Source: an uncultured Candidatus Saccharibacteria bacterium
GTDB taxonomy: Bacteria > Patescibacteriota > Minisyncoccia > Phycocordibacterales > WO2-35-19
Length of the DNA stretch: 43,301 nt
Assembly: GCA_964601125.1 (NCBI GenBank)
Contig: CAZRKB010000001.1
Coordinates: 6,371 to 49,671 of the forward strand
Direction of reading: 5' to 3'
The notes beneath the pieces were generated by a model that was not told the DNA's origin, did not search any database, and saw only the letters and a list, made by a program, of their open reading frames with translations. The stretch's first letter is position 1; every line of letters begins with the position of its first letter. Of the stretch, positions 8,963 through 43,170 are shown in pieces. A program made the translations under genes and the position numbers.

Positions 8963-10642
8963 TTACATCTTTTCTGGTACTTTGATACCCAAAAGATGGA
9001 GACCATTTTTGAGAATGTGATAGACCGACTCAGTGAGTGCCACCTTGTAAGAAGAAGTTGGGTCTTCTTCACTTATTATTTTGTTATTGCCATAAAAACT
9101 ATTGAAAGCTGAGGCGAGTTCGGTGAGATAGGTGACCAAATGATGAGGTGCGTACTCCCGCCCCGCTCGCTCGACAATTTCCGGAAAACGATAGAGCATT
9201 CTTTCGATTTCTGTTGTTCCCCAATTTTCCAAGGTTAGTCCTTGGAAGTTTTTTGTGTTATTAATTATCGCTTTTGAAAGCACCGATTTGGCTCGGACTG
9301 CTGTGTATTGTAAGTATGGCCCAGAGTCGCCTTCAAAAGAAATTGATTGGTCAAAATCAAAAATAATGTCCCCTCCGATCGCCTGCCTGAGTACCGAATA
9401 CTTTATCGCCCCTATAGCTACCGCTTCAGCTATTTTTAATTTTTCTTCTTCGTTATAATCCCGGTCCTTCAATTTTTCTGAAACTAGAGTTTGCACATCA
9501 TCAATCAATTGTTCCCCGGTTATAACATTGCCTTTACGCGAAGACATTTTGCCGGAAGGAAGTTTCAACATCCCATGAGAAAGGTGCTCGGTATTTTCTG
9601 CTACTTCCGGATTTATTTGTCCCAATGCTTTTAGCACAACTCTAAAATACCCATCCTGCTCGTTTGCAGTAATTATTATTGATTTGTCAGACTTATATTT
9701 ATCAAACTTGCGCAAAGCGTGAGCGATATCTTTAGCTTCATACAAAGGTAAGCCTTCATTATTCAAAAAAACTCTTGTGTGTAGTTTTTGGTCATACTTT
9801 TCTCCCCTGAAAATAACTGCGCCGTCGCTTTCTTCAAAAACCCCTTTTTGTAAAAATTCTTTTACTATTTTTTGAGCATCATCCGAAACTTCGCTTTCAA
9901 AAAAGTAAAAATCAAATTTGGTATTAAGTTTTTTATACAGCTCTTCAAAATGCGCGAGCGACACCTCTCTGCCCCATTCATAAATTTTCAAAAGTTCCTG
10001 ATCGCTCTTTTCATAAATTTTTTTGTTTATTTCCTTTATTTCTTCTTGGGCTGCTGGATCGTCCTCATACGCATTTGAGCCACTCGCATACGCCTTACCT
10101 ATATACTCAACCTTTTCTGCCAAATTTCCTTCCATTATTCCTCCCTCCTTTTTTATACCCCAAACAGCTTTGGCAATATGAAGTCCAACATCTCCTTGGT
10201 AAGTATTCCTTTTAACTTCTGCGCCACTCCATTCAAAAATGTTTGAGATCGATTGACCGATCACATTGCCCATCAAGTGCCCGATGTGAAGCGGTTTCAA
10301 TACATTTGTGTTTGTGTATTCTATTATTATCTTCTTGTTATCAAGCAAATCTGTTTTCCCAAAATTTTCTTTTTTCTTATTTATTTCGATAATCGAATCA
10401 GCGAAAAAATGTTTCGAGAGGAAAATATTTATGAATCTCTCATTCGCCAATTCTATCTTTTCGATTTCAGGCAATTTATTTTTCTCTAATTTTTCTATCA
10501 CCCCCTCTCCCCCTCTTATGCTAAGCGGGGGTAAAATCAAAGCAAAATCTCCCTTTTCAATTTCTTTTGGATGCACCAAAACCACACTCTCCATCTCAAG
10601 TGTCTCCTTTACCCACTGTTCAATTTTTTCTTTTATTGGCAT
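8963..10642 (-). CDS. argS: arginine--tRNA ligase
   Basis: 559 aa; class I HIGH motif PLHIGHLMGNVIG; C-terminal anticodon-binding region; contains family 1 repeat copy J in frame. Confidence 0.93.
   Translation of the reverse strand: MPIKEKIEQWVKETLEMESVVLVHPKEIEKGDFALILPPLSIRGGEGVIEKLEKNKLPEIEKIELANERFINIFLSKHFFADSIIEINKKKENFGKTDLLDNKKIIIEYTNTNVLKPLHIGHLMGNVIGQSISNIFEWSGAEVKRNTYQGDVGLHIAKAVWGIKKEGGIMEGNLAEKVEYIGKAYASGSNAYEDDPAAQEEIKEINKKIYEKSDQELLKIYEWGREVSLAHFEELYKKLNTKFDFYFFESEVSDDAQKIVKEFLQKGVFEESDGAVIFRGEKYDQKLHTRVFLNNEGLPLYEAKDIAHALRKFDKYKSDKSIIITANEQDGYFRVVLKALGQINPEVAENTEHLSHGMLKLPSGKMSSRKGNVITGEQLIDDVQTLVSEKLKDRDYNEEEKLKIAEAVAIGAIKYSVLRQAIGGDIIFDFDQSISFEGDSGPYLQYTAVRAKSVLSKAIINNTKNFQGLTLENWGTTEIERMLYRFPEIVERAGREYAPHHLVTYLTELASAFNSFYGNNKIISEEDPTSSYKVALTESVYHILKNGLHLLGIKVPEKM
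10498..10531 (-). repeat. family 1 element (hairpin + G-rich tail), copy J, inside argS
   Basis: Minus strand CCCCCGCTTAGCATAAGAGGGGG (9 bp plus 1 mismatch) followed by AGAGGGGGTGA; encodes PPLSIRGGEGV. Confidence 0.7.
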
Positions 10643-11164
10643 AGCTTTTTAAATAGCTTATACCCAGTCATCGCTCCGTTCAAGGCGTTGTGTGGTTCGG
10701 GCTCCGGCTCGATACCAAAAAGGTTGCAGGCTGATTTCAAACTCCAACTTTTTTCTTTTTTCAAACCCTTCTCCCAAGCAATTGAAAGTAGGTCGAGTCG
10801 ATCATGGTTTTCTTTGGTGCTCATTGGGTTATCGATCTCTGCTTTAAAAAACGCTTCATTTATAAAACCCCAATCAAAGCTTACATTGTAAGCGCAAAAA
10901 ACGTTTTCTCCTGCTCTATCTTTGTATTCCTTCATCGCTTACTGCATCTGCCCAATCTTTTTCGCTGTAACCGTTGTAATCAAGAGCTGCTTGCACCGCA
11001 TTTTCTATCCTTTCTGGTTTTACTTTTCTATTATAACTATCAATGATTTCAAAAGTTTGTGGATCAAAAAGCACCAAACCAATCTCAAGTATTTCATGCA
11101 CTCCAGGCACATCCCCACTTGTCTCCAAATCCGTCATAGCAATTTTTTTCTTGCTTTTGTCCAT
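10633..11164 (-). pseudogene. DEDDh (DnaQ-like) 3'-5' exonuclease split by a frameshift
   Basis: ORF 10916..11164 carries Exo I (MTDLETSG); ORF 10633..10935 carries Exo II (AYNVSFDWGF) and Exo III-like HNALNGA; they overlap by 20 nt in different frames. Confidence 0.7.
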
Positions 11165-11165
11165 T

Positions 11166-11756
11166 TTATTTAGCCCCCTTTTTGCTATTTATCCATTTGC
11201 CCGTAAGTAGCCGATGCCAATCATTTGGATCTCTCTTTTGTATTTCATCCCACATTTTCTTTGCGGTTTTTGTATAAAGTTTCTTAGATCTAACCACCGG
11301 TCTATGATCCTTTTGCATACTGATAGCTGCAGAGTCACCAATCTTGGCCAGCTCTTTTAGTTCTAAATCAACATCCAAATTGTCAGCGTCTTTAACAATT
11401 TTTGCCTCAAGAGATTCGCGTTTATTGTATTCTTCAAGCAATATTTTTGCCTCTTTTTCTAAAACAGTATTTTCAAAAATATGTTTTTCAGCCAATTCTT
11501 CATGTCTTGTCACATAATCTCTGTGCATAAAAGCAATATCCCCCGTTCTAGCTTCAGCTACATCATGCAACAAACACATTTTAATAACCTTAGAGACATC
11601 CGCTTTTTCGGCAATTGCAATAACCCAAGCAACCATAGTCATTCGAAAAATATGTTCAGAAATATTTGCCGCTTTACCCGTGAGTAGCTGCTGCCACGCT
11701 CTATCAACCTTTCGTAGACTACCAACCTCATACAAAAAATCTATGTCTCTTTTCAT
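11166..11756 (-). CDS. HD-domain phosphohydrolase (YfbR-like 5'-deoxynucleotidase)
   Basis: 196 aa; HD motif LLHDVAEARTGDI; 4-nt overlap with the glyA stop. Confidence 0.75.
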   Translation of the reverse strand: MKRDIDFLYEVGSLRKVDRAWQQLLTGKAANISEHIFRMTMVAWVIAIAEKADVSKVIKMCLLHDVAEARTGDIAFMHRDYVTRHEELAEKHIFENTVLEKEAKILLEEYNKRESLEAKIVKDADNLDVDLELKELAKIGDSAAISMQKDHRPVVRSKKLYTKTAKKMWDEIQKRDPNDWHRLLTGKWINSKKGAK

Positions 11757-12973
11757 TTTCGTAAAATTTTATCAATTTTTCTAGCAATGTTTACAAAATC
11801 TTTTTCTTTTTTGCCCCGAGTGGTTTCTGCTGCGCTCCCGAGCCTTATGCCAGAAGGATCCATCGGACTCCTGGTTTCGTTTGGAATTGTGTTTTTGTTT
11901 ACGATGATTCCATTTTTCTCTAATCTATCACTCGCGTCCTTACCCGAAATTCCTTTTCCTTCCATCCAAGTATCAACTAAAATTAAGTGGCTGTCTGTCC
12001 CACCAGAAACTACGCGCCAACCAAGTTTTTTTAACTCATCCGACAGAGCCTTGGCGTTCTTTATAACCTGCTTCGCATATTTTTGGAATGCAGGAGTTTT
12101 AGCTTCTTTGAGAGCCACTGCCACAGCGGCTATCTGGTTTAAGTGTGGCCCACCCTGTAACCCCGGGAAAACAGCTTTGTCTATAAGTTCTGAAATACTT
12201 TTATCTTCCCCTTTTGCATTTTTAATAGTTACATCATTACGTGAAAATATAATGGCGGAGCGAGGACCGCGAAGAGTTTTATGCACTGTAGTAGTTACCA
12301 CATGAGCACAAGGAAAAGGAGATGGATAAGCCTTGCCCGCAACAAGCCCCGCAAAATGAGACATGTCTACCATGAGTATCGCCCCGCAACTGTCGGCTAT
12401 CTCTCTAAATTTTTTGAAATCAACAATACGAGGGTAGGCAGTGAATCCGGCCACGATTATGTTTGGCTTTTCCCTTAAAGCGATTTCCTTTATTTTCTCA
12501 TAATCAATCTGTTCTGTATCTTTGTTCACCCCATAAGGCACCTGCTGCCAAAATTTACCGGTAGCTGAAACTTTGTGCCCATGAGTGAGGTGCCCACCAT
12601 GGTCAAGAGACATGCCCATAATCTTGCCTTGTCCTGAGCTTGTCGAAGGGCCACCCTTTGGTACAAGGCCCAGATAAACAGCCAAGTTGGCAGGACTACC
12701 TGAGAGAGGTTGTACATTAACACTCCACTTTGAAGTGAGGTTGAAAAGTTTAATAGCTCTTTCTTTACAAAGATTTTCAATTTTGTCTACAAAGGTTTGC
12801 CCTCCATAATATCTTTTGCCAGGATACCCTTCAGCATATTTATTTGTAAGTTCGCTCCCAAGCGCCTCGAGCACATCTTTAGAAACATAGTTTTCAGAAG
12901 CAATCAGGTTTATAACGCTTTTCTGTCTCTTCTTCTCTGCATCTATTAGCTTTTTTATTTGTTGGTCTTTCAT
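11753..12973 (-). CDS. glyA: serine hydroxymethyltransferase
   Basis: 406 aa; SLDHGGHLTHG and PLP-lysine region TTTVHKTLRGPR. Confidence 0.95.
   Translation of the reverse strand: MKDQQIKKLIDAEKKRQKSVINLIASENYVSKDVLEALGSELTNKYAEGYPGKRYYGGQTFVDKIENLCKERAIKLFNLTSKWSVNVQPLSGSPANLAVYLGLVPKGGPSTSSGQGKIMGMSLDHGGHLTHGHKVSATGKFWQQVPYGVNKDTEQIDYEKIKEIALREKPNIIVAGFTAYPRIVDFKKFREIADSCGAILMVDMSHFAGLVAGKAYPSPFPCAHVVTTTVHKTLRGPRSAIIFSRNDVTIKNAKGEDKSISELIDKAVFPGLQGGPHLNQIAAVAVALKEAKTPAFQKYAKQVIKNAKALSDELKKLGWRVVSGGTDSHLILVDTWMEGKGISGKDASDRLEKNGIIVNKNTIPNETRSPMDPSGIRLGSAAETTRGKKEKDFVNIARKIDKILRK
12626..12652 (-). repeat. 27-nt G+C-rich in-frame segment in glyA (family 4 candidate)
   Basis: Minus strand GGCCCTTCGACAAGCTCAGGACAAGGC encodes GPSTSSGQG within the otherwise conserved L-x-P-G-D-x-(I/V)-(M/L)-G-M region; resembles the nested segment of copy H. 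Confidence 0.45.
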
Positions 12974-13985: not shown

Positions 13986-13986
13986 A

Positions 13987-14023
13987 CCTCACCCCTAACC
14001 CCTCTCCTAGATTCAGGAGAGGG
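13987..14023 (-). repeat. family 1 element, copy A
   Basis: Minus strand CCCTCTCC-TGAATCTA-GGAGAGGG-GTTAGGGGTGAGG; begins 2 nt after the thyA stop. Confidence 0.85.
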
Positions 14024-14036
14024 AAAGAAAAAAGAC

Positions 14037-18636: not shown

Positions 18637-18661
18637 AAAAAACCCCGGAACGGGGTTTTTT
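18637..18661 (-). terminator. rho-independent terminator after the SIMPL gene, upstream of secE
   Basis: AAAAACCCCG-GAA-CGGGGTTTTTT, symmetric A/T tracts. Confidence 0.8.
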
Positions 18662-31196: not shown

Positions 31197-31197
31197 A

Positions 31198-32075: not shown

Positions 32076-32366
32076 TTATTCGATCTTATCTCCACTTTTA
32101 AGATAAACATACGCCTTTTTTACCCCTGGTTTTACACCTTTTTTCCCCCTAACAAAGACTGACTTGCTTGGGTTTTTAACTATATTTACTTTAATCGGAG
32201 TAACTTTATAAAAGGCTTCTATAGCGTTTACAACATCACCCTTTTTAGCATTAGAAGCTATTTCAAAAGTGTGCACGTTGCCACCGACGGCCACGTGGTT
32301 AGCCTTCTCTGTTATCCTTGGTCTTAGCAAGGTTCCTGCGTATTTTGCTTTGTTATCTGTAGCCAT
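32076..32366 (-). CDS. rplW: 50S ribosomal protein L23
   Basis: 96 aa in the canonical position between rplD and rplB. Confidence 0.9.
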   Translation of the reverse strand: MATDNKAKYAGTLLRPRITEKANHVAVGGNVHTFEIASNAKKGDVVNAIEAFYKVTPIKVNIVKNPSKSVFVRGKKGVKPGVKKAYVYLKSGDKIE

Positions 32367-32375
32367 TTTTAAAAA

Positions 32376-33047: not shown

Positions 33048-33052
33048 GATTA

Positions 33053-33670: not shown

Positions 33671-33756
33671 GGAAATAGACCGGTTAAAAGAAAAACACCT
33701 TTTTCGGCTCAAATAAAGCTAACAGATATCGTCTAAAAACGCAAGGGTTTTGACAT

Positions 33757-33791
33757 AAACAAAACTGCCCCTTTATGGGGCGGTTTTGTTT
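33757..33791 (-). terminator. terminator-like hairpin between rpsJ and rplC
   Basis: Minus strand CCGCCCC-ATAAA-GGGGCAG followed by TTTTGTTT, in a 119-nt spacer inside the S10 operon. Confidence 0.6.
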
Positions 33792-34149
33792 ACATTATCT
33801 TGACATCCACATTTACTCCAGATGGCAATGATAAGTTAGTCAGAGCGTCCATTATTTTAGGAGAAGGGTTAACGATATCTATAACTCTTCTGTGAACCCT
33901 CATTTCAAACTGTTCACGAGCGTTTTTATAGACAAAAGGCGCCCGATTAACCGTATATTTCTTGATTTCGGTAGGAAGAGGTATTGGACCAACTATTTTA
34001 GCGTCATAACGAATAGCGGTATCAATGATTTGTTTTACCGAAACATCAAGAATCTTATACTCATAGGCCATGACTCGGATTCTCAATTTCGAAATAGCCT
34101 CATCTTTTTGAGATTTTGATTTTTTTTCTTTTTTTAATGTGCTCTCCAT
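33790..34149 (-). CDS. rpsJ: 30S ribosomal protein S10 (short N-terminal extension)
   Basis: LRIRVMAYEYKILD and PLPTEIKKYTVNRAPF motifs. Confidence 0.94.
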   Translation of the reverse strand: MESTLKKEKKSKSQKDEAISKLRIRVMAYEYKILDVSVKQIIDTAIRYDAKIVGPIPLPTEIKKYTVNRAPFVYKNAREQFEMRVHRRVIDIVNPSPKIMDALTNLSLPSGVNVDVKIM

Positions 34150-35541: not shown

Positions 35542-35585
35542 CCCTCTCCTAAATCCAGGAGAGGGTGCCAATCAGGCGGGTGAGG
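35542..35585 (+). repeat. family 1 element, copy D (variant tail)
   Basis: CCCTCTCC-TAAATCCA-GGAGAGGG-TGCCAATCAGGCGGGTGAGG; 7 nt beyond the stop of the 35592..35891 gene. Confidence 0.8.
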
Positions 35586-35591
35586 TCGAAA

Positions 35592-35945: not shown

Positions 35946-38900
35946 TCAAGCCACCCTTTTAAAGATCATCGGGTCCACCACTTTGCCTGGTGCAACATCG
36001 GTAGGTTTCGGCCTAGGATGTTCTGCCACAAATTTACCTAGACGTTTTACATAATCAACCATATTTTCATCTTTATACGGTATTACATCTACACCATCTC
36101 CGCTTGCCCCAGATGCTTTGGTGCCTTCCATTGCCTCTTTTCTAAGAAAATCTATATAGCCGATCAAATTTCGATGCGACTGGGAAACAGAGAGGCTTTC
36201 AACTATTTTTTTGGGTAATTCAGAATCTTCTGGATGTTTGTAATAATCCAAAACCTTTGATGCGTTTTGGGGAGCGATTTCTTTCCATTCTGGGGAACTT
36301 ATCCCTTCCTGTTTTCCTATACCCAAAAACCCTTCTTTTCCATAAATAGTATTTATGTCGTTATTAAAATGTTTTTCTACTTCTTCTGTGGTGATCATTT
36401 CAGCGATCACTCTTTTAGTATCTCCTTCAAGCGACCTTACAGCTTCCACCATCGCATTTTTTCCTTTTCCACCCTCTATTACTTCAAAAGCTGTTTTGTT
36501 TTCGTGAGTAAGAATACCAGCTTTTGCTGATTCAATCTTGTCTTGCATTTCTCTATCTAATGAACTATCTGCGTTTGCATCTACACTTAGACCAACAACC
36601 TCTTCTGTATCCATTTCTACCTCTGTCTCATTAATATCCTCGCCTAGATTCCTAAACGAATCTCCTTTATCCATTATGACAATTGGTTCTGCTTTGGGTT
36701 TTGTATTCAAAATTTCATCTACTGTTTTGCTATCAAGATTTTGCCCCTGATGACTCGGGTCTTTAACCCAAGCAGCAATTTTGGCATCATTTTCTTCTAT
36801 TATCTTGATTCTGTTTTCGGGCAATTTTTCCGCCTTTTCTAAAATTTCATTTATCCATTTTTTATCTTCAAAAAGTTTGGAGTAGTTTACTTCTTTGCCG
36901 ATCAAAATTTCCCCATTTTTTCCTACACCTTCTGCATATTTGCTCGGGTCTCCCAAAACCCTGTTATTAAGGTAGGAAATAACAAGACTTTTTTGTCCCG
37001 AATGCTCTAGTTTTGCAAACCTATCATTATGTTCCATTGTTTCTCTAAGCAGACCCCAATTTGAATCACCTTTTTCCGGCATATGCTTTAAGTTTTCTGG
37101 GCTTAAAAGTTGTGGCGCATTTTCTGCATATATTTTTTCATTGATAGATTTTAATTGATCTTCAGTTGGCACCTTTGGTGCGTTTGGGTGTAATTCATTT
37201 TTTAAAGATAAACCGCCATAATAAGAATCAAGAAACCCTCCCACCGCAACACCCGCACCCGCACCAAGTCCAAAAGTAATAGCGCTTTTTTTCAAAGCTA
37301 GATTTCTTTTTTTATTTTCAGCTTGTTTTTTTAATTCCTCAAATTTTTTGGTTTTCTCTTCAAGAGATTCATGAGAATTCTTTATTTTTTCCTCTTCCTC
37401 CTTTTCCCATTTTTCTACATTTTCAATCTTTGGCCCAATAGTAGCGCCCAATGTAGAGCCAACAAGAGAACCTGCGGCTCTCGCTGTTCTATAACCCACA
37501 GCGCCAAGCACCCCGATGGCCGTCCCCCCCGCAGCAAAAGTTCCCACACCCAAAGCTGCACCAAATAACGCGCTGTTTATTGCAAATTTGGTTAATCTAT
37601 TTTTACCCAAATACCATCTAGCCAGCTTTGTATTCAAAAGAGAAAAAGCTGCTTCCTTGACCTTATCCTTTAAGCTTTCGGATTTATGTTTTCTAAAGGT
37701 ATCCAAATAAGTGTCGCTTTCTTTTTTTAATAACTCCTCATAAATGGTGTCGTGTATTTCTTGCTCCAAAACTCTCTCTTGCTCTGGAGTAAGATTTGAC
37801 CCCGCTTGCCGTCTCAGCGTTTCTTCAATTTTTTTAGCAACGGTTTCTTTATAGTTTCTATACTCCGATCTATTAATTTCAAGCCCAATACTCGACATGC
37901 CCAACTGATCGATCGGGGCATCTGCTCGAGCCAAATCTTCTCTCATTTGTTCAAATTTTTTCCACTCTTCACTTTCTCTCCAGTTTTGCACAGGAGTGCT
38001 TATATTGTTTGGATTTGTAGTAGATTCACCACTCGTTACTGGGACTAGTTCACCAACAAGTATTTCTTCTGTTTTGGGTTTTACAGCTTCTACTTGTTCA
38101 TCTTCTACTGATACCCCATCTTGTGTTTTAGGATTTTCAAGATTCCTTATTATATCTTCTATCCTTTTGATTTCTTTTAACTTTGATTCCAATACTTCAT
38201 CTTTTGTGTGGCCATCTTTTTCCATCGCTTCCAATTCTGATCTTATTTCATCTTTTTGACGTCGCCATTGGTCTATTTGAATCAAAACTTCAAGTTTTTT
38301 TATTTCATCTTCTTTTTGCTGTAAAATATCGTCTTTTTCTATTCCTACTTTTTCTGCTTTACGCAAATCCTCCTTAAGAATTTCTAACTTGGTCGATAAT
38401 TCTGAATCTTTTTCTACACTAGGATATCGGCTTCCATAAGAAGCAGGTTGAGCGAACTCTACGTTTGATTCTTCTCTTGGTCTCAATTCATTTGCCAAAA
38501 CAACTGACGAAAAAGCTGATGGTCTTGGACCTTGAGGTCTGAAATACTGCACCCTCTCCTGCATATCATATTTGTAATCTTCCGGAGTGGATGGTGACTG
38601 AACCACAACATCAGAGATGTCTACTTCGGGCGCAAGTTCTGGTGTCAACTCAACTTGCAGTTCTTCTGGTTTTTTTTCCTCCCCATTTAAATTAATTGAC
38701 TCGTCAGGCTCTGGTGAAGTTGGTGAGGGAGCAGCTTCTTCCTCTGGTTGATTTCGCAAAAAATTTATTATTCCTTCTCCGGTAACACCGACACCTATAT
38801 TTATTTTCCCATCTTTGAGTGATATACCATTTTCACCAACCAAATTTATTTCAGTTTTTTTACCTTTCAACAAAGTAGGGTCTAAATCTATGGCCTCAGC

Positions 38901-39059
38901 AAGAGATTCGTAGATATTAAATTTATGTTGAGATCCCAAAGCTTCAAACTCAGGAGTTCTTGCACTTCGTCCATGAGCCCCAAAAAAGAAGGCTACCTTA
39001 TTTACTGCGTCAGGATTATGAATATCTGGATTTTTATTTAATACTCTGGAGGCTTCCAT
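35946..39059 (-). CDS. large (1037 aa) hypothetical protein: coiled-coil regions flanking central Gly/Ala-rich TM segments
   Basis: Uninterrupted ORF from the ATG at 39059; E/K-rich heptad-like stretches; hydrophobic Gly-zipper segments (ALFGAALGVGTFAAGGTAIGVLGAVGY and AITFGLGAGAGVAVGGFL); no enzymatic motif. Confidence 0.6.
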   Translation of the reverse strand: MEASRVLNKNPDIHNPDAVNKVAFFFGAHGRSARTPEFEALGSQHKFNIYESLAEAIDLDPTLLKGKKTEINLVGENGISLKDGKINIGVGVTGEGIINFLRNQPEEEAAPSPTSPEPDESINLNGEEKKPEELQVELTPELAPEVDISDVVVQSPSTPEDYKYDMQERVQYFRPQGPRPSAFSSVVLANELRPREESNVEFAQPASYGSRYPSVEKDSELSTKLEILKEDLRKAEKVGIEKDDILQQKEDEIKKLEVLIQIDQWRRQKDEIRSELEAMEKDGHTKDEVLESKLKEIKRIEDIIRNLENPKTQDGVSVEDEQVEAVKPKTEEILVGELVPVTSGESTTNPNNISTPVQNWRESEEWKKFEQMREDLARADAPIDQLGMSSIGLEINRSEYRNYKETVAKKIEETLRRQAGSNLTPEQERVLEQEIHDTIYEELLKKESDTYLDTFRKHKSESLKDKVKEAAFSLLNTKLARWYLGKNRLTKFAINSALFGAALGVGTFAAGGTAIGVLGAVGYRTARAAGSLVGSTLGATIGPKIENVEKWEKEEEEKIKNSHESLEEKTKKFEELKKQAENKKRNLALKKSAITFGLGAGAGVAVGGFLDSYYGGLSLKNELHPNAPKVPTEDQLKSINEKIYAENAPQLLSPENLKHMPEKGDSNWGLLRETMEHNDRFAKLEHSGQKSLVISYLNNRVLGDPSKYAEGVGKNGEILIGKEVNYSKLFEDKKWINEILEKAEKLPENRIKIIEENDAKIAAWVKDPSHQGQNLDSKTVDEILNTKPKAEPIVIMDKGDSFRNLGEDINETEVEMDTEEVVGLSVDANADSSLDREMQDKIESAKAGILTHENKTAFEVIEGGKGKNAMVEAVRSLEGDTKRVIAEMITTEEVEKHFNNDINTIYGKEGFLGIGKQEGISSPEWKEIAPQNASKVLDYYKHPEDSELPKKIVESLSVSQSHRNLIGYIDFLRKEAMEGTKASGASGDGVDVIPYKDENMVDYVKRLGKFVAEHPRPKPTDVAPGKVVDPMIFKRVA

Positions 39060-39066
39060 ACCCAAA

Positions 39067-39072
39067 ATTATA
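39067..39072 (-). promoter_or_regulatory. -10 box TATAAT, 7 nt from the ATG of the 1037-aa gene
   Basis: Read on the minus strand. Confidence 0.45.
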
Positions 39073-39136
39073 CGTTAAGAAATTTTTAAATAAAAGGGAA
39101 AACCTGCTCTGTATTAGACTTAGCTATGATACGAAT

Positions 39137-39164
39137 TTGACATGTGCTTTAGTTTGTGTATAAT
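39137..39164 (+). promoter_or_regulatory. near-consensus sigma70-type promoter TTGACA-16-TATAAT (nusA leader)
   Basis: Both hexamers perfect, read directly from the sequence. Confidence 0.7.
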
Positions 39165-39188
39165 GGAGGCGATACTGAAATCAGACGC

Positions 39189-39216
39189 GTCCGCCTTCCG
39201 GCGGACTTTGTGTTTT
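39189..39216 (+). terminator. intrinsic terminator-like hairpin within the nusA leader
   Basis: GTCCGCC-TTCC-GGCGGAC followed by TTTGTGTTTT, ~25 nt after the predicted start site and 68 nt before the nusA ATG. Confidence 0.65.
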
Positions 39217-39250
39217 AAAAGTATTATTAATAATAAAGAAGGCTCGGAAC

Positions 39251-39288
39251 CCCCTTCTCTTAATGTAAGAGAAGGGTTTGGGGATGAG
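39251..39288 (+). repeat. family 1 element, copy E, overlapping the nusA start codon
   Basis: CCCTTCTCTTA-ATG-TAAGAGAAGGG (11 bp) followed by TTTGGGGATGAG; the ATG in the tail is the predicted nusA start. Confidence 0.8.
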
Positions 39289-40519
39289 TTATAAACCTAT
39301 GTTTGACTTAAAAGTTATAAATTCGGTCCTTGATCAACTAAAAGAAGAGAGAGGTATACCAAAAGAAAAGGTGCTTGAAGCCATAGAAATGGCCATAGCA
39401 ACAGCTTATAGGAAAGAATACGGCAAGCGCGGACAGATAATCCGAGCCAAATTCGACATACAAACCGGTGCCATAGAAATGAGCCAGGTCAAAATCGTAG
39501 TAGACGAAACAAAAGTCTTTATGGACAGAGAATCCTTAGAGGAAGCCTTGGCTGAAGCAGAAGAAAAAGACGACGAAAGAGTTTTGTTCAATCCCGAGCA
39601 TCATATCCTAGTAGAAGACGCAAAAAGGATTAAAAAAGGTGCGGTAGTCGGAGATGAGATCATTTTTCCCATCGAATCAAAGGGTGATTACGGAAGAATA
39701 GCCAGCCAGACTGCCAAACAGGTCATAATGCAAAAAATCCGTGAGGCAGAAAGAGAATCAGTACTCAAAGAGTTTGGTGAGAGAGAAGGAGATATAATAA
39801 CCGGCTCTGTGCAGAGGATCGAGCGCGGAAACATATTTATAGATGTAGGCAGAGCGGTAGGCATCATGCCTTATGAAGAACAAATCCCAGGCGAGCGATT
39901 TAGCCAAGGAGAGAGAGTACGCGCTTATCTTTACCGAGTAGAAGACGGACCAAAAGGCGTGGTTTTGAGACTTTCTCGTTCTCACCCCAAGTTCCTTATC
40001 GAGCTTTTCAAAAATGAAGTGCCGGAGCTTGTCAACAATTCGATAGAAATAAAGAGTGTAGCTCGAGAACCAGGGTCAAGATCAAAAGTAGCCGTTGTTT
40101 CAAATGACAACTACATTGATCCGGTCGGATCATTGGTTGGGCAAAGAGGTGTAAGAGTAGCCACCGTAACAAGTGAGCTAGGAGGAGAAAAGATAGACAT
40201 TATAGAGTGGTCAGATAACGCAGCAGAATTTATCGAAGACGCCCTCTCTCCTGCCAAAATAGTGTCAGTTGACATTGATGAAGAAAACAGAGAGGCAAAA
40301 GTGGTGGTTTCAGAAGATCAGCAATCTCTCGCTATCGGCAAAGGTGGCCAAAACGTACGCCTCGCTGCTAAATTAACTGGTTGGAGGATAGACATTAATT
40401 CCATAAAGGGTGAGGAGCTCGGCGGAGCAGAAGGAGTCGACTCCGCTCAAGGCTCCGTCGAGCCGAAGGAGGAAAAGAAGGAAGAAAAGGTAGAAGAATC
40501 AAAAGAGGAAAATTCATAA
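39284..40519 (+). CDS. nusA: transcription termination/antitermination factor NusA
   Basis: S1 and two KH regions (GQRGVRV, GKGGQNVRLA); acidic/lysine-rich tail; the start could be 39284 or 39299. Confidence 0.93.
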   Translation: MSYKPMFDLKVINSVLDQLKEERGIPKEKVLEAIEMAIATAYRKEYGKRGQIIRAKFDIQTGAIEMSQVKIVVDETKVFMDRESLEEALAEAEEKDDERVLFNPEHHILVEDAKRIKKGAVVGDEIIFPIESKGDYGRIASQTAKQVIMQKIREAERESVLKEFGEREGDIITGSVQRIERGNIFIDVGRAVGIMPYEEQIPGERFSQGERVRAYLYRVEDGPKGVVLRLSRSHPKFLIELFKNEVPELVNNSIEIKSVAREPGSRSKVAVVSNDNYIDPVGSLVGQRGVRVATVTSELGGEKIDIIEWSDNAAEFIEDALSPAKIVSVDIDEENREAKVVVSEDQQSLAIGKGGQNVRLAAKLTGWRIDINSIKGEELGGAEGVDSAQGSVEPKEEKKEEKVEESKEENS

Positions 40520-40555
40520 CCCCCTCCCAACCTCTCCCTTACCTTAAGGGAGAGG
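40520..40555 (-). repeat. family 1 element, copy F
   Basis: Minus strand CCTCTCCCTT-AAGGT-AAGGGAGAGG-TTGGGAGGGGG; starts 1 nt after the nusA stop. Confidence 0.8.
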
Positions 40556-40583
40556 TGCCAAACAAAACAAAATTTCACAAAAA

Positions 40584-40607
40584 AGCCCCTGAAATAGGGG
40601 CTTTTTT
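40584..40607 (+). terminator. rho-independent terminator after nusA
   Basis: AGCCCCT-GAAAT-AGGGGCT followed by TTTTTT. Confidence 0.8.
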
Positions 40608-40613
40608 GTACCC

Positions 40614-40642
40614 TTGCAATTTATATCTTATTATGCTATAAT
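40614..40642 (+). promoter_or_regulatory. promoter TTGCAA-17-TATAAT for the 40664 cassette gene
   Basis: Hexamers and spacing read directly; AGGAGG follows at 40650-40655. Confidence 0.65.
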
Positions 40643-40663
40643 ACACGTTAGGAGGTCCATAGA

Positions 40664-41035
40664 GTGGACGACAACAATAAAGAATTTTTTGCAACTTTCA
40701 GATTCACTCCCGACAAAAACCCGGTGGGAGACGCGGTTGGGCGCAAACTCATACTCGCGATCTTGTTCAGTGTTGCTCGAGAATTTCACTCGAAAGAAAG
40801 AGTTTGGTCAGAACTGAAAGAACGAGCAAGTGTTTTTGGAATAAAGGACGTCCTAGATAAATACGAAGACGTTCTGATTCTCCGTGAGGAGATTGGCTCA
40901 ACTTTGAGCCAAATTGACCAATCACAGCAAACATTTGGAAGATTTTTGGATCTGGCCATCAAGGCTGGCTACGACGTGAAGAACGTGTCTATTGACAGCC
41001 TCCTGGATGAAGGAGGAAAAACAAAGACCACCTGA
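40664..41035 (+). CDS. hypothetical protein in a self-contained cassette (own promoter, SD, GTG start, terminator)
   Basis: 123-aa ORF; AGGAGG 8 nt upstream of the GTG; TTGCAA-17-TATAAT upstream; strong terminator downstream; no motif recognised. Confidence 0.55.
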   Translation: MDDNNKEFFATFRFTPDKNPVGDAVGRKLILAILFSVAREFHSKERVWSELKERASVFGIKDVLDKYEDVLILREEIGSTLSQIDQSQQTFGRFLDLAIKAGYDVKNVSIDSLLDEGGKTKTT

Positions 41036-41048
41036 GGACAAGACCAAC

Positions 41049-41087
41049 CCCCCGACGCGGAAGACGCGTCGGGGGTTTTGATTTTTT
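41049..41087 (+). terminator. rho-independent terminator after the cassette gene
   Basis: 11-bp stem CCCCCGACGCG / CGCGTCGGGGG, loop GAAGA, then TTTTGATTTTTT. Confidence 0.85.
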
Positions 41088-41102
41088 AGGTTTTTGGTCT
41101 GG

Positions 41103-41140
41103 CCCCCTCCCTTTAGAGTAAAGGGAGGGTTAGGGAGGGA
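41103..41140 (+). repeat. family 1 element, copy G
   Basis: CCCTCCCTTTA-GAG-TAAAGGGAGGG-TTAGGGAGGGA (11-bp stem). Confidence 0.8.
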
Positions 41141-41232
41141 TTAGTTTGGAAAACGAGCAGATGATACTTTAAATTTATCTTATGGTCTGATATCCTTAAT
41201 TCATAATTCTTTATTCATAATTCAAATTTTTT

Positions 41233-41754
41233 ATGAACCTATGGCACGAAATTGATCCAGGCGAGAAAACAGAGATGAATGTCATCGTCGAAATAAACAA
41301 AGGGTCCAAAAATAAATACGAGGTTGATAAAAAGACCGGCCTTATCGCCTTAGACAGAGCAATGCACACAGCGCAGGATTTCCCTTTTGACTATGGCTTC
41401 GTGCCTCAAACCCTTTGGCATGACAATGATCCACTCGACGTTATTTTACTTACCACCTTTCCCCTACTCCCCGGAGTTTTAGTGCGAGCAAGGCCAATTG
41501 CAATAATGAACATGATCGACGGCGGTGAAGGAGACGACAAAGTCATAGCTGTCCCCTGCGATGACCCACGTTGGGATAAAGTGAAAGACTTAGGAGACAT
41601 AAACGAGCACACTCTAAAAGAAATGGAGCATTTTTACTCTACCTACAAAAAACTCCAGAATAAGGTGGTTGAAATAACGGGTTTCAAGGGTCGCGAGGAA
41701 GCAGAGAGGGCTTTTGAAGAGTCTCTTGATATCTACAAAAAGAAATTTAAATAG
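41233..41754 (+). CDS. ppa: inorganic pyrophosphatase (family I)
   Basis: 173 aa; DPLDVILL and DGGEGDDKVIAV motifs. Confidence 0.93.
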   Translation: MNLWHEIDPGEKTEMNVIVEINKGSKNKYEVDKKTGLIALDRAMHTAQDFPFDYGFVPQTLWHDNDPLDVILLTTFPLLPGVLVRARPIAIMNMIDGGEGDDKVIAVPCDDPRWDKVKDLGDINEHTLKEMEHFYSTYKKLQNKVVEITGFKGREEAERAFEESLDIYKKKFK

Positions 41755-41761
41755 GTCTTAT

Positions 41762-41848
41762 GCCTCTCTTAATAATAACCTGTCTCGACGACCCGCTTCG
41801 CCAGAGCTCCAGCGAGGCGAGCAAGGCGGAGAGGGGTTAGGGGTGATT
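41762..41848 (+). repeat. family 1 element, copy H, composite with a nested GC-rich segment
   Basis: Right arm plus tail GGAGAGGGGTTAGGGGTGA at 41828-41846; candidate left arm CCTCTC at 41763; ~60 nt between them holds the hairpin GCTTCGCC...GGCGAGC. Confidence 0.6.
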
Positions 41849-41928
41849 ATCCCCTTTAAAAAAGATTTAAACCGTACTACAATGGTAATTATTACCAATA
41901 CGGTTTATTTATTATTTAAATATAAAAA

Positions 41929-42708
41929 ATGAAAAATAAGTTGTTTTTAGGAACATGTATTTTGAGTTTCGCCCTTTTGCCCTTGGTTTCAAGCGCTGAA
42001 GAATTAAACGTGGGCACGGACTCTAGCATAAAAGTCCAGGCCGCTGGAGTAAATGCAGAAATTAGAGCCAAAGCTCAGGCCGATTTTGAGGCCCGAAAAA
42101 TGGAGCTTGAGCAAAAAAGAGAGGATCTCAAGATGGAAATGGAAAAAAGACGCGAGGAGTTAAAAACCCAGATGGAAGAGAGGAAGGATGAAATGGAGCA
42201 AAAAAGAGAAACTGTGAAAGACCAGGTGGAAGCCCAGAGGGAAGAAATTAGAAATCAAATGGAAGAAAGACGTGAGGGCGCAATCGGAGTAATAAAAGAA
42301 AGGTTAAGCAAATTTACAGAAAATCTAGTCAAAAGATTTGATGCGGCCATAGAAAGACTTGAGGTTCTAGCAGACAGGATAGATTCTAGAATTTCCAAAA
42401 TGGAGGCCGAAAATCTTGACGTAACTGATGCTAAAGAGTTAATGGTTGTGGCCAGGATAAAACTTGAGACAGCCAAAACAAGTGCGGCAGGAATTGACCT
42501 AGAATCAGTGCTTGTGGCTTCGAGCACAGCCACAACCACGGCAACAATAAAAGCTGACTTCGATAGCCTAAGAACTCAGATAGAAAAGGCTAAATCAGAC
42601 ATCAAAGCAGCTCATGCTGCCTTGGTAGATGTAATAAAAAACTTGAAGCCGGGCCAAAGGAAGCAACCGACCGCCACATCAACCGCCACAACAACTGATA
42701 GCAATTAA
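41929..42708 (+). CDS. secreted coiled-coil protein with E/K/R-rich internal repeats
   Basis: Signal peptide MKNKLFLGTCILSFALLPLVSSA; repeated ...E.KRE.L/MEE.R... units; T-rich C-terminus. Confidence 0.55.
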   Translation: MKNKLFLGTCILSFALLPLVSSAEELNVGTDSSIKVQAAGVNAEIRAKAQADFEARKMELEQKREDLKMEMEKRREELKTQMEERKDEMEQKRETVKDQVEAQREEIRNQMEERREGAIGVIKERLSKFTENLVKRFDAAIERLEVLADRIDSRISKMEAENLDVTDAKELMVVARIKLETAKTSAAGIDLESVLVASSTATTTATIKADFDSLRTQIEKAKSDIKAAHAALVDVIKNLKPGQRKQPTATSTATTTDSN

Positions 42709-42730
42709 TTTAACAATTAACTAAAAATAG

Positions 42731-43048
42731 ATGGATACAATCAACCCAAACCAGATGCCAGCATTCCAAGGACAGGTAGAAAAAAAATCTTCGGGCCCTC
42801 TTATAGCTGTCATCATAATACTTGCCCTCATAGTAGTCGGTGGCCTATATTTCCTAAAGGAAAGATCGGAACAAAACTCTTACGTACCCCAAAATGTAGA
42901 GGAAGATACGATCACTGAATCATTGATGCAACAGAGCGCTTCTGATGATTTAGATTCAATCGAGGCTGACCTCAATGCCACCAACCTCGACAACCTCGAC
43001 CAAGGCGCCACTGCTATACAAGCTGAAATACAAGCTTCAAGTCAGTAA
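42731..43048 (+). CDS. hypothetical membrane-anchored acidic protein
   Basis: 105 aa; one TM helix (PLIAVIIILALIVVGGLYF). Confidence 0.5.
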   Translation: MDTINPNQMPAFQGQVEKKSSGPLIAVIIILALIVVGGLYFLKERSEQNSYVPQNVEEDTITESLMQQSASDDLDSIEADLNATNLDNLDQGATAIQAEIQASSQ

Positions 43049-43066
43049 AACTCACATACTACAAAC

Positions 43067-43097
43067 AAAAAACATCGCAAACAGAGCGATGTTTTTT
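43067..43097 (+). terminator. rho-independent terminator
   Basis: ACATCGC-AAACAGA-GCGATGT flanked by an A-tract and a T-tract. Confidence 0.75.
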
Positions 43098-43101
43098 GTT
43101 C

Positions 43102-43132
43102 CCCCCTACATCTAGTAGAGGGCCTAGGGTAG
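43102..43132 (+). repeat. family 1 element, copy I1 (degenerate)
   Basis: CCCCCTA-CATCTAG-TAGAGGG (one mismatch) followed by CCTAGGGTAG. Confidence 0.55.
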
Positions 43133-43136
43133 TATT

Positions 43137-43170
43137 TCCCTCTTTTGTTGTAAGAGAGGGATAGGGTGAG
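43137..43170 (+). repeat. family 1 element, copy I2
   Basis: TCCCTCT-loop-AGAGGGA followed by TAGGGTGAG; tandem with I1, 13 nt upstream of the xth ATG. Confidence 0.7.

Follow-up and report, generated by a model that had tools for sequence, protein, structure and literature searches.

The 43,301-nt stretch of DNA analyzed here (the window), from a Parcubacteria-type (CPR) genome, carries eleven copies of a short repeat at a density of about two per 10 kb. Judged by their sequence, these repeats are of an already published kind, named BoxC, PIT elements or TM_ECO. We consider it probable (roughly 0.6) that the copies are triplex repeats of this kind and solo relatives of the repeats that flank DUF559 genes, which are small Vsr-like PD-(D/E)XK endonuclease genes, in related genomes. 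Direct support comes from the architecture of the copies, the covariation of their parts, their excess over chance, their insertion into coding sequence, the turnover of their sites and a physical link to DUF559. Triplex formation itself would follow by analogy with in vitro work on the E. coli elements (PMC4666352).

Triplex-type architecture of the repeat

All eleven loci of the preliminary description were confirmed, each in place or displaced by at most 2 nt. A descriptor scan of the window required, in this order, a pyrimidine arm, a loop of 3-14 nt, a purine arm, a linker of 1-14 nt and a mirrored third strand; hairpin and third strand could each contain one mismatch. Nine intact copies with 9-10 base triplets each were identified, and the remaining two (H and I1) are decayed or partial. 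In the window, nine matches of at least 9 triplets compare with none in 100 dinucleotide-preserving shuffles, and the observation stands. Chance similarity of G/C-rich palindromes, which we find barely credible together with its companion reading, in which a RAYT-type (IS200-like Y1) transposase moves ordinary REP elements, is refuted by these shuffles, as not one contained even a single 9-triplet copy.

On one strand, the pyrimidine arm, loop, purine arm, linker and third strand follow each other, and the third strand repeats the purine arm in mirror order, G facing G and either A or T facing A. This layout is the one expected of a class II intrastrand purine-motif DNA triplex. The 8-11 bp stems, 3-8 nt loops, two orientations and compensatory arm changes reported earlier are all correct; what had been overlooked is that the supposed plain tail behind the hairpin is a mirror-repeat third strand covarying with the stem. 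The proposed tail consensus TTGGGGGTGAGG holds loosely, being exact in copy C only and one base off in copy A, and the other tails differ from it because each mirrors its own purine arm. The mirror rule fits 86 of 87 positions, compared with 69 of 87 for a direct repeat or for the tail as an alternative hairpin arm. The third strands fit their own arms at 0.99 and the arms of other copies at 0.66, and the observed value was reached in 0 of 10000 permutations. All fetched DNA together contains 349 perfect 9-bp pyrimidine/purine hairpins; a mirror third strand matching at 9/9 accompanies 290 of them, and one matching at 8/9 or better accompanies 327. Arm variants in the CPR loci number at least 12, and the third strand fits the arm in every one.

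The conserved feature is the three-way fit instead of the sequence, which argues that the fold, as a DNA structure, is important in vivo. The copies lie in mixed orientation to transcription (6 against 5), and purine-motif triplexes reportedly do not form in RNA (Semerad and Maher 1994, cited in PMC4666352); both points favor action at the DNA level over the RNA level. The same E. coli repeats have also been read as a switch between a hairpin and a G-quadruplex of purine arm plus tail ('HPGQ'), based on K+-dependent CD changes (Kaplan et al. 2016, PMC5100583). We regard such a quadruplex as a very unlikely functional fold for the window copies. Copy G does contain four GGG tracts, but it is the only one of the eleven with four G3 tracts, four of the eleven lack even four G2 tracts, and copy E cannot make a 3-tier quadruplex. 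In contrast, the triplex register is retained in 9/9 intact copies, a quadruplex does not require the position-by-position A/T mirroring of the arm, and the 18 imino signals recorded by Holder et al. were interpreted as triplex (PMC4666352).

Placement of the copies

Eight of the eleven copies are intergenic in a window with a coding density of 91.5% (intergenic share 8.5%; P about 4e-7), and this excess points to selection on placement. The earlier statement that start or stop codons lie no more than about 10 nt from most copies is right for A, D, E, F, H and I2. Sequences are given below as pyrimidine arm / loop / purine arm / linker / third strand. Copy A (13986-14023, minus strand, intact; CCCTCTCCT / GAATCT / AGGAGAGGG / GTTAG / GGGTGAGGT) makes up most of the 51-nt thyA-HIT spacer, with the thyA stop codon 1 nt before it. 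Copy D (35542-35586, plus strand, intact; CCCTCTCCT / AAATCC / AGGAGAGGG / TGCCAATCAGGC / GGGTGAGGT) is intergenic, with 5 nt between its end and the stop codon of a DUF5663 gene; its 12-nt linker forms a mini-hairpin of its own, and long hairpin linkers are also found in relatives. Copy E (39252-39290, plus strand, intact; CCCTTCTCTT / AATGT / AAGAGAAGGG / TTTG / GGGATGAGTT), which stops 9 nt short of the likely nusA ATG (39299), has the most diverged arm yet retains 10/10 triplets.

Copy F (40518-40555, minus strand, intact; CCTCTCCCTT / AAGGT / AAGGGAGAGG / TTG / GGAGGGGGTT, with one third-strand mismatch) overlaps the stop codon of nusA; a true terminator, distinct from the copy, comes after it at 40577-40609. 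Copy G (41105-41142, plus strand, intact; CCCTCCCTTT / AGAGT / AAAGGGAGGG / TTA / GGGAGGGATT) is intergenic, 91 nt before ppa, and is preceded by a terminator-like hairpin at 41049-41075. Copy H (41762-41846, plus strand), decayed or long-looped, was missed by the strict scan. Its intact part at 41828-41846 comprises purine arm GGAGAGGGG, linker TTA and third strand GGGGTGATT, and of the stem a 6-bp partner (CCTCTC) is left about 60 nt upstream, with another small hairpin in between. The decayed copy I1 (43102-43136, plus strand; CCCCCTAC / ATCTA / GTAGAGGG / CCTA / GGGTAGTA) directly follows a terminator at 43064-43100 and has a mismatch in the stem and a third strand out of register. Copy I2 (43137-43172, plus strand, intact; TCCCTCTTTT / GTTGT / AAGAGAGGGA / T / AGGGTGAGTT) stops 12 nt short of the likely xth ATG (43184).

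The other three copies lie, as had been noted, in essential genes (B in folD, C in rplS, J in argS) and are translated in frame in FolD, L19 and ArgRS. Copy B (19725-19761, plus strand, intact; CCCCCCTCTT / AGAGT / AAGAGGGGGG / TT / GGGGGGTGAT) encodes the peptide SPPNPPLTLRGG in the GINR...VGDV turn of FolD, and copy C (30781-30819, plus strand, intact; CCCCTCTCCT / CTTGCA / AGGAGAGGGG / TTG / GGGGTGAGGT) encodes LPHPQPLSLQEERGE in the acidic C-terminal extension of the ribosomal protein. Copy J (10497-10531, minus strand, intact; on the G-rich strand CCCCCGCTT / AGCAT / AAGAGGGGG / AGA / GGGGGTGAT), with one G.A mismatch in the stem, gives PPLSIRGGEGV in ArgRS. At the same place the ArgRS of a relative has unrelated sequence of similar length, the window showing a net gain of 3 codons; copy J is a replacement of resident sequence, not a simple addition.

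Turnover among relatives

In 866 kb around NusA homologues (80 loci), six strict matches were found, four of them in the nearest relative of the window (L126), which rises to six elements under a looser scan; from the other 79 loci the element is almost wholly absent. None of the L126 copies was found exactly at a window site, and one follows just after the L19 stop codon, near the position of copy C. Relatives have copies at sites that are empty in the window and lack them at sites where the window has them, and the family therefore turns over. With its patchy spread and site turnover, the repeat behaves like a selfish element.

In FolD, copy B is identical in a 99%-identical strain, and in L124 the arms and third strand are identical while 3/5 loop bases differ, the two FolD proteins sharing only about 62% identity. 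At the same site L327 has a different arm variant, 93% identical to window copy A and not to B, and the site is empty in L123. Collectively, FolD orthologues have the insert in some cases and lack it in others, at two different sites and in both orientations. No pair of alleles was found in which a filled and an empty site could be told apart cleanly, by defined ends or by a duplicated target; the best case is copy A against L327, which at the syntenic site is without 34 nt (hairpin and linker) and keeps ACCTCACC, 8 nt identical to the element end, and the A-run. This comparison would read equally well as a deletion from which part of the third strand escaped.

These data also bear on whether the copies serve the host, be it as punctuation of replication or recombination, as stabilizers of mRNA 3' ends, as attenuators or as ribosome-binding modules. 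Start or stop codons are directly adjoined by six copies, the third strand stands 9-12 nt before the ATG in E and I2 and 3 nt before the DUF559 ATG of L126, and arms and third strand are more conserved than flanking coding sequence. However, proximity to gene ends is expected of any tolerated intergenic insert because of the high coding density, and with the mixed orientation no one reading as RNA can account for all copies. Relatives do not share the sites, 79 related loci are almost entirely without the element, three copies interrupt essential proteins, and true intrinsic terminators stand beside F, G and I1. In E. coli, PIT elements acted neither as promoters nor as terminators (Hoyne and Maher 2002, cited in PMC4666352). 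We consider a host signal an unlikely explanation.

Association with DUF559 endonuclease genes

The preliminary description knew of no mobilizing enzyme and saw no transposase or RAYT-like gene in the window. The latter is borne out by Pfam over about 60 ORFs; as to the former, a candidate, the DUF559 endonuclease, exists in related genomes. All 13 DUF559 ORFs or domains in the fetched loci (11 fetched via a 20-mer of the repeat, 2 via NusA similarity) are flanked by elements. When DUF559 loci were picked by protein similarity alone, an element lay within 250 nt upstream in 20/21, downstream in 15/21 and on both sides in 14/21, although 12 of the 21 fall into two groups of near-identical small high-GC contigs and are not all independent. 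In these 21 loci, 48 of 71 element matches lie within the gene-near 12.7% of bases (P about 1e-26), and shuffled loci gave one match. The tie spans at least six lineages and several arm variants, in four 20-kb CPR loci nearly all elements adjoin DUF559, and across 239 element-centered loci DUF559-bearing proteins form the largest recurring neighbor family.

In L126, the intergenic region matching that of copy I2 holds a DUF559 gene with two flanking elements, in the order element, ribosome-binding site, DUF559, terminator, element; here the third strand takes the ribosome-binding-site position. The repeat-DUF559-repeat unit of about 0.45-0.65 kb occupies differing places in syntenic genomes and is also found in frame inside LeuRS, MetRS and an MmeI-type enzyme. 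The ycjD gene (DUF559) of E. coli K-12 has a strict TM_ECO 168 nt past its stop codon, and element-like sequence overlaps the stop codon itself. The catalytic-type D...ExD residues of DUF559 are invariant, and its profile matches the homing-endonuclease catalytic domain 3R3P (PMC3424549). The 43-kb window contains solo copies only, with no DUF559 gene or remnant. From this association, DUF559 may be the partner enzyme that mobilizes the repeat; it could also be a passenger, a gene whose flanks are targeted by the elements, or a host enzyme processing such structures. The link is a new lead for these repeats.

A RAYT-type transposase finds one point in its favor: in a single CPR locus (L350), 9 kb separate a Y1_Tnp gene from a DUF559 gene. 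Against it, the GTAG head is absent, and no Y1 transposase was found in the window or adjoining elements in the 239 element-centered loci.

Triplex repeats might also spread without a dedicated enzyme, the folded strand stalling replication. Short homologies such as the ribosome-binding-site-like GGTGAGG would then prime slippage, template switching and gene conversion, by which copies would be gained, lost and homogenized, while DUF559 genes share permissive hotspots or are carried along. In vitro, DNA polymerases are blocked by PIT/TM elements, which in E. coli mark variable regions (PMC4666352); of the element, a short nrdA-nrdB allele of E. coli retains the third strand alone, and the 8 nt kept at the 'empty' A site of L327 fit such events. 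The different arm variants at one FolD site in two relatives, with the L327 copy resembling copy A, look like conversion, and the window has no nuclease gene. Nevertheless, polymerase copying cannot make a mirror repeat, and the three-way fit therefore still needs selection; shared hotspots poorly explain the DUF559 tie in its frequency and breadth, or the near-exclusive adjacency in the four CPR loci. We consider this explanation possible but doubtful.

In the triplex-repeat reading that we favor, the two arms would pair as a Watson-Crick hairpin in single-stranded DNA, and the third strand would fold back into the major groove through G.G-C, A.A-T and T.A-T reverse-Hoogsteen triplets. The window copies would be solo, non-autonomous versions of the repeats flanking DUF559 genes, and DUF559 may recognize or cut the folded element and drive its copying. 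Solo copies would have multiplied and persisted only where tolerated. Such places may be short spacers abutting gene ends, where the third strand could double as a ribosome-binding site or its complement supply a TAA stop, and surface loops or tails of FolD, L19 and ArgRS, where in-frame copies would yield Pro/Gly-rich peptides.

Comparison with known repeats

PIT elements are documented by Hoyne et al. (2000), and TM_ECO, with its class II triplex pattern, by Holder et al. (2015, PMC4666352). The E. coli element strand forms a triplex in vitro by CD and NMR, melting at 70-82 C, and DMS footprinting did not detect the triplex of E. coli copies in vivo (PMC4666352). The strict E. coli pattern matches none of the window copies, which represent a sister variant. 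The preliminary description had likened the family to REP, MITE and Rickettsia palindromic elements. The REP likeness is rejected, with no GTAG head and no RAYT gene, as is the MITE likeness in its usual sense, with no target-site duplication seen. What stands is a dispersed, structure-conserving, selfish-like element that, like the Rickettsia palindromic elements, also sits in frame inside protein-coding genes.

Predicted triplex architecture of the repeat copies

A listing of all perfect hairpins in the window revealed seven perfect pairings of a pyrimidine arm with a purine arm, 9–12 bp long, at the places where the preliminary description had put its repeats. Copies J (10497–10531, minus strand) and I2 (43137–43172, plus strand) have the same hairpin design with one mismatch. 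In a descriptor scan of the window, nine intact copies were identified, each with 9–10 triplets and at most one mismatch, against no match with at least nine triplets in 100 dinucleotide-preserving shuffles, which confirms that the repeat family is real. Nine of the eleven copies counted earlier thus stand as intact elements, and the other two are decayed. Copy H (41762–41846, plus strand) retains the purine arm and the tail, with its pyrimidine partner down to 6 bp and about 60 nt away; copy I1 (43102–43136, plus strand) has a mismatch in the stem and a tail out of register. Since MAFFT alignment left the stems one column out of register between subtypes, the descriptor scanner and the shuffle controls were used in place of a covariance model.

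Along one strand, the element consists of a pyrimidine arm, a loop, a purine arm, a linker and a G-rich tail. Folding as single-stranded DNA with ViennaRNA, which models Watson-Crick pairs only, gave −6 to −11.4 kcal/mol for the arms and left the tail unpaired in every case. The tail is tied to its own purine arm by a mirror rule (G opposite G; A or T opposite A), to which 86 of 87 positions conform, versus 69 of 87 when the tail is read as a direct repeat or an alternative hairpin arm, a reading that we rejected. The fit is 0.99 for a copy's own arm and 0.66 for the arms of other copies, and none of 10000 permutations reached the observed value. No one tail sequence is common to the copies: TTGGGGGTGAGG is matched exactly by copy C only (30781–30819, plus strand), and each tail mirrors its own purine arm. 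Copy C joins the purine arm AGGAGAGGGG through the linker TTG to the third strand GGGGTGAGGT. The same three segments are AAGAGGGGGG, TT and GGGGGGTGAT in copy B (19725–19761, plus strand), AAGAGAAGGG, TTTG and GGGATGAGTT in copy E (39252–39290, plus strand), AAAGGGAGGG, TTA and GGGAGGGATT in copy G (41105–41142, plus strand), and AAGAGAGGGA, T and AGGGTGAGTT in copy I2. In copy D (35542–35586, plus strand), a 12-nt mini-hairpin serves as the linker between AGGAGAGGG and GGGTGAGGT. Among 349 perfect 9-bp pyrimidine/purine hairpins in all DNA fetched, a third strand mirrored at all 9/9 positions lies within 22 nt in 290 cases, and one mirrored at 8/9 or more in 327.

Templated copying is unable to produce a mirror repeat, so what maintains the three-way compensation must be selection for a fold in which all three segments take part. 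As read from the sequences, this selected fold is an intrastrand purine-motif triplex with predicted reverse-Hoogsteen G.G-C, A.A-T and T.A-T triplets. Class II triplexes of this motif (the 'G/C-rich TM' of ITxF; PIT) are defined by a pyrimidine arm, a loop, a purine arm, a second loop and a reverse-Hoogsteen strand that is antiparallel to the purine arm, with triplets G.G-C, A.A-T or T.A-T and stems of 6–15 nt with at most one mismatch. Nine window copies show this pattern, likewise in excess over the shuffles, and eight of the nine intact copies keep within the ITxF loop limit of 1–6 nt, the exception being D with its 12-nt linker. That the window copies belong to this kind of triplex repeat is our main reading, with a probability of roughly 0.9.

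Two other structural readings were weighed against it. G-quadruplex formation (HPGQ; four G-tracts of at least 3 with loops of 1–7 nt) is within reach of one of the 11 window copies, a 3-tier quadruplex being impossible for B, E and I2, and the triplex register is kept in nine; the quadruplex was rejected for this lineage. An intrinsic (Rho-independent) terminator was rejected since the tails of the copies are G-rich and have no T-run. True intrinsic terminator hairpins with flanking A/T runs do occur in the window, at 18637–18661, 40577–40609, 41049–41075 and 43064–43100, two of them bidirectional; three lie right beside F (40518–40555, minus strand), G and I1, which shows that the repeats themselves are not the terminators. 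Rfam yielded no family match for the repeats, with only one tRNA in the window at the gathering threshold and only weak terminator-like matches, at E up to 10, in 39000–43301.

On the G-rich strand, TTTCTT is a frequent 5' flank of the pyrimidine arm (copies A, B, C and D), and AAAGAAAAAA comes after the hairpin both at window 14024–14033 and, at an unrelated site in a second genome, at about 6011–6020 in L124 (L-numbers denote loci fetched from other genomes or contigs). The element may therefore reach a few bases past its arms. One stem mismatch also recurs. In the cross-phylum loci L001–L120, 26 of 28 single-mismatch copies have the same T-to-G change, which places a G.A mismatch in the hairpin. 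This mismatch, the pyrimidine arm CCCCTCGCC opposite GGAGAGGGG, recurs across phyla and is also found in window copy J, in L352 (10358–10394) and in L102. A mismatch-type (Vsr-like) nuclease could use it for recognition.

Host context and placement of the copies

The 43.3-kb window has a G+C content of 40% and a coding density of 91.5%, the latter being enough to explain the closeness of the copies to start and stop codons. Its best relatives are CPR/Parcubacteria, and its NusA is 86% identical to that of the metagenome contig L126. The housekeeping genes include a split S10 ribosomal-protein cluster, tuf, nusA, nusG, rplK, folD, glyA, thyA, folA and argS, and genes for a copper ATPase and a histidine kinase are also present. 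No transposase, integrase or RAYT-like gene was found among the genes of the window, in agreement with the preliminary description.

Several features of this gene context were recorded on their own account. The S10 cluster lies in two pieces (2552–6257 and 30723–34149): S10-L3-L4-L23-L2 is followed directly by rplS (L19), and S19-L22-S3-L16-S17-L14-L5 lies about 25 kb from the rest, with unrelated genes between. The L2–L19 junction is common to L126 and L329, and S19-L22 lies about 17 kb further on in L329, which indicates that the split is conserved in the clade. An RNase T-like exonuclease at 10633–11164 (minus strand) is a single 175-aa gene in L124 and L125 and is broken in the window into two overlapping ORFs (10916–11164 and 10633–10935); this split is a frameshift, either of a pseudogene or by sequencing error. 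A 1039-aa ORF at 35946–39065 (minus strand), between a DUF5663 gene and nusA, gave no Pfam match, and a HicA-type toxin ORF at 29600–29842 (plus strand) adjoins tRNA-His.

Intergenic DNA makes up 8.5% of the window and accommodates eight of the 11 copies (P about 4e-7). Their orientation relative to transcription is mixed (6 versus 5), which argues for a fold at the DNA level and not at the RNA level. Several copies start exactly at a TAA stop codon, namely A (13986–14023, minus strand) and F of the window and two in L124. The three copies that are not intergenic lie, as described earlier, inside essential genes; they are B in folD, C in rplS and J in argS.

Copy B appears in FolD as a 14-residue insertion after DVGINR when compared with solved FolD structures (3P2O). 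At this site, some of 23 relatives have no insert and many have related Pro/Gly-rich inserts; others have inserts at a second site and in the opposite orientation, for example APLPLGEGVGGG. The FolD of L124 shares with B the arms and the third strand and differs at three of five loop bases, in proteins only about 62% identical. That of L327 has at the same site a different arm variant, 93% identical to window copy A, and in L123 the B site is empty and the other site is filled. Copy C lies in an acidic C-terminal extension of L19, whereas L126 instead has an element just after the stop codon. Copy J in ArgRS replaces about ten residues of a relative's sequence, with a net gain of three codons.

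Intergenic sites also turn over. Copy A is absent from L327, where 34 nt (the hairpin plus the linker) are missing and ACCTCACC and the following A-run remain, a difference that fits either deletion or homology-guided gain. The window has no element at two sites that are filled in L124, one after nusG and the other after a DsbD-like gene, and the D site holds an extra gene in L126.

Distribution and relation to the TM_ECO elements

Elements known as BoxC, PIT or TM, repeats of Escherichia coli and other bacteria, have been on record since the 1990s (Bachellier et al., in that decade); we know of no established role or means of spread for them. The original 'BoxC' was renamed 'potential intrastrand triplex (PIT) elements' by Hoyne et al. 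(2000) and TM_ECO by Holder et al. 2015 (PMC4666352). The published pattern, CCCTCNCCC N3-6 GGGNGAGGG N3 GGGNGAGGG, is a class II triplex, and TM_ECO oligonucleotides fold in vitro as very stable triplexes, as judged by CD, 18 imino signals in NMR and melting at 70–82 °C (PMC4666352). These elements stall DNA polymerases in vitro, and in vivo the folded form was not detected by DMS footprinting (PMC4666352). The strict pattern has no match in the window on either strand, the best copy being C at four substitutions, and five matches in the 120 cross-phylum loci L001–L120; the E. coli copies at nrdA-nrdB and ycjD match it. The window family is thus a sister variant and not TM_ECO itself.

The 20-mer GAGAGGGGTTRGGGGTGAGG was found in species-representative genomes of Chloroflexota, Planctomycetota, Bacteroidota, Cyanobacteria, Acidobacteriota, Verrucomicrobiota, CPR and several classes of Proteobacteria among the matches listed, and for 100 of 132 among the matches listed a matching C-rich arm lies at most 40 nt before it. 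Further occurrences are in 100 plasmid or chromid records and in 119 IMG/VR viral contigs. Across the CPR, the elements occur patchily: in 80 loci around NusA homologues, 866 kb in all, there were six strict matches, and L126, the nearest relative, accounts for four of these. Elements of some Chloroflexota and cyanobacteria stand head to tail in arrays that repeat every 39–42 nt with no spacers (L033 2841–2944; L077 3548–3684; L015; L105).

At the nrdA-nrdB spacer of E. coli (L121 2996–3040; L206; L326), the triplex repeat is present in 1681 of 5426 complete genomes. K-12 has REP/BIME units in its place, and strain BS-04 has a short allele with a rearranged remnant that keeps the third strand only; no clean empty site was found at this spacer in K-12 or the short allele.

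DUF559 as a candidate partner gene

We collected 4138 ORFs within 2.5 kb of the 20-mer at 239 loci and clustered them all against all. No ORF family occurred in more than 11 of the 239 element-centred loci, and the largest cluster was formed by host proteins with an inserted DUF559 domain (PF04480, a small Vsr-like PD-(D/E)XK nuclease family). The genes between inverted element pairs, at six loci, were ordinary host genes only. A search with the inserted domain returned 13 ORFs, all 13 flanked by triplex elements, and Pfam assigned the DUF559 ORFs to PF04480 at E about 1e-30 to 1e-38. The free-standing genes encode about 116 aa (L126 12378–12731 among them), and other domains are translated in frame inside LeuRS (L017), MetRS (L003) and an MmeI-type enzyme (L116). 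On the coding strand of L126, an element is followed by an ATG 3 nt after the third strand, then DUF559, a terminator and a second element; this unit lies in an intergenic region matching that of window copies I1/I2, and its protein has a counterpart of 100% identity in Candidatus Zambryskibacteria bacterium RIFOXYC1_FULL_39_10.

The reciprocal test set comprised 21 DUF559 genes picked by protein similarity only, 17 of them complete in viral contigs and 4 in CPR contigs. An element lies at most 250 nt upstream in 20 of 21, downstream in 15 and on both sides in 14, in loci that are not all independent. With the same dependence among loci, 48 of 71 element matches fall in the 12.7% of bases next to a DUF559 gene (P about 1e-26); shuffled DUF559 loci gave one match. 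Several variants of the arms occur among the flanking repeats, always with a third strand to match, and in the syntenic L350 and L351 the DUF559 gene occupies different places. In E. coli K-12, ycjD is the only DUF559 gene known to us. A strict TM_ECO element lies on the same strand 168 nt past the ycjD stop codon, which is itself overlapped by an element-like sequence. DUF559 has invariant D...ExD residues, and the family profile matches 3HRL and the catalytic domain of the Vsr-like homing endonuclease 3R3P (E about 1e-4 for 3R3P). The papers surveyed that mention DUF559 or ycjD, judged mainly by title and abstract, draw no connection to BoxC/PIT repeats.

The preliminary description had proposed looking for a co-occurring nuclease gene, and DUF559 answers to that beside elements in related genomes (L126, L167 and L349–L352). 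In the window, neither phmmer nor the A5 profile on the six-frame translation returned a DUF559 gene or remnant, so the window holds solo copies only.

In JGI and NCBI records, free-standing proteins of about 116 aa with a DUF559 domain (P0124, P0130, P0141, P0144 and others) go by the name 'leucyl-tRNA synthetase' or 'Leucine-tRNA ligase', probably by annotation transfer from LeuRS genes with an inserted DUF559 unit.

Proposed mobile unit and its significance

The link between DUF559 and the elements is one of association, and we give roughly even odds that DUF559 is the partner of the triplex repeats, as the gene neighbourhoods suggest. The main rival is spread without an enzyme, through replication errors at the folded strand. 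Most likely, the window reflects a bloom, specific to its lineage, of solo ends of triplex repeats associated with DUF559. A broader proposal, which we advance tentatively and rate as somewhat improbable, is that DUF559 (YcjD; 3HRL) is the missing BoxC/PIT partner enzyme. In this proposal, a triplex repeat, a DUF559 gene and a second triplex repeat would form one pan-bacterial miniature mobile unit; the enzyme would recognise the unit ends as folded DNA triplexes, possibly at the recurrent G.A stem mismatch; and solo ends would multiply as parasites of 35–45 nt that can persist in frame within essential genes.

That many diverged copies within a single small genome keep arms and third strand matched is evidence by comparison for selection in cells on the triplex fold, and favours it over the hairpin alone and over the quadruplex. 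The family also inhabits streamlined CPR genomes. There, copies are read through as part of FolD, L19 and ArgRS; other phyla have LeuRS and MetRS genes in which an entire repeat-DUF559-repeat unit is translated. The family thereby shapes essential proteins and confuses annotation. If true, the DUF559 reading would for the first time assign a defined biological role to intrastrand DNA triplexes and, with the repeats, would constitute a second REP-RAYT-like system on a different nuclease fold. The two-way link, E. coli ycjD included, makes the question of BoxC/PIT spread open to experiment.

Comparison with known systems

The closest known relatives are the BoxC/PIT/TM_ECO elements. Both families have a C-rich arm, a 3–6-nt loop, a G-rich arm, a linker of about 3 nt (TTA/TTG, 'type A') and a mirror G-rich third strand, in near-identical letters (GGGAGAGGG-TTA-GGGTGAGGG in E. 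coli versus GGAGAGGGG-TTG-GGGGTGAGG in the window). Both are dispersed in both orientations, sometimes as inverted pairs, without promoter or terminator features, and are tied to local variability; in E. coli, promoter or terminator activity was reported to be absent (Hoyne et al. 2002, as cited in PMC4666352), and TM_ECO elements mark variable regions among strains (PMC4666352). The window family differs in that its arms vary widely with three-way compensation, its linkers extend to hairpins of 12–20 nt, and its CPR host has about 2 copies per 10 kb versus 23 per 4.6 Mb in K-12. The K-12 copies were described as 'always intergenic' with no mobility genes nearby (PMC4666352), whereas three window copies (B, C and J) lie inside folD, rplS and argS, and the DUF559 link is absent from that account. 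The same E. coli repeats were read as a G-quadruplex/hairpin switch, 'HPGQ', by Kaplan et al. 2016 (PMC5100583), a view from the G-rich half whose quadruplex potential is not conserved in the window.

REP/REPIN-RAYT systems likewise consist of numerous short structured repeats, as singlets and inverted doublets, with one or a few small nuclease-type genes flanked by repeats and a folded single strand that is presumably recognised. The REP-like identity suggested earlier was set aside: the repeats have no GTAG head, and no Y1_Tnp gene is present in the window or adjoins elements at the 239 loci. They differ also in having a third strand, copies in coding sequence and a candidate partner that is PD-(D/E)XK Vsr-like and not HUH/Y1. 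One CPR contig has an IS200/RAYT-type Y1 transposase gene (L350 19329–19985), 9 kb from its DUF559 gene.

MITEs are recognised by terminal inverted repeats around a core of 100–400 bp, a target-site duplication and a related full-length IS element. The solo copies are 35–45 nt, with no target duplication visible at the best filled/empty pair, and the repeat-DUF559-repeat units carry inverted terminal repeats of about 33 nt.

Rickettsia palindromic elements (RPEs) are selfish palindromic DNA, inserted in frame in essential genes, translated and tolerated in surface regions. They are about 100–150 bp, are confined to Rickettsia-type bacteria and are without triplex design, and we know of no mobilising enzyme for them. 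The earlier view of the window copies as selfish, RPE-like elements holds for the in-frame, translated insertions in essential genes, the only trait in common; it fails on size (35–45 nt) and host, and neither the triplex design nor the published work nor the candidate enzyme was part of it.

Vsr, DUF559 and the Vsr-like homing endonuclease have been placed in one clade (PMC3424549). Like the latter (I-Bth0305I type; PDB 3R3P, 'mobile intron protein'), DUF559 is a small, putatively selfish nuclease gene invading other genes. The I-Bth0305I-type enzyme is housed in a group I intron and spliced out, whereas the DUF559 unit lacks the features of an intron or intein: triplex repeats flank it, and a unit that lies within a gene is translated through.
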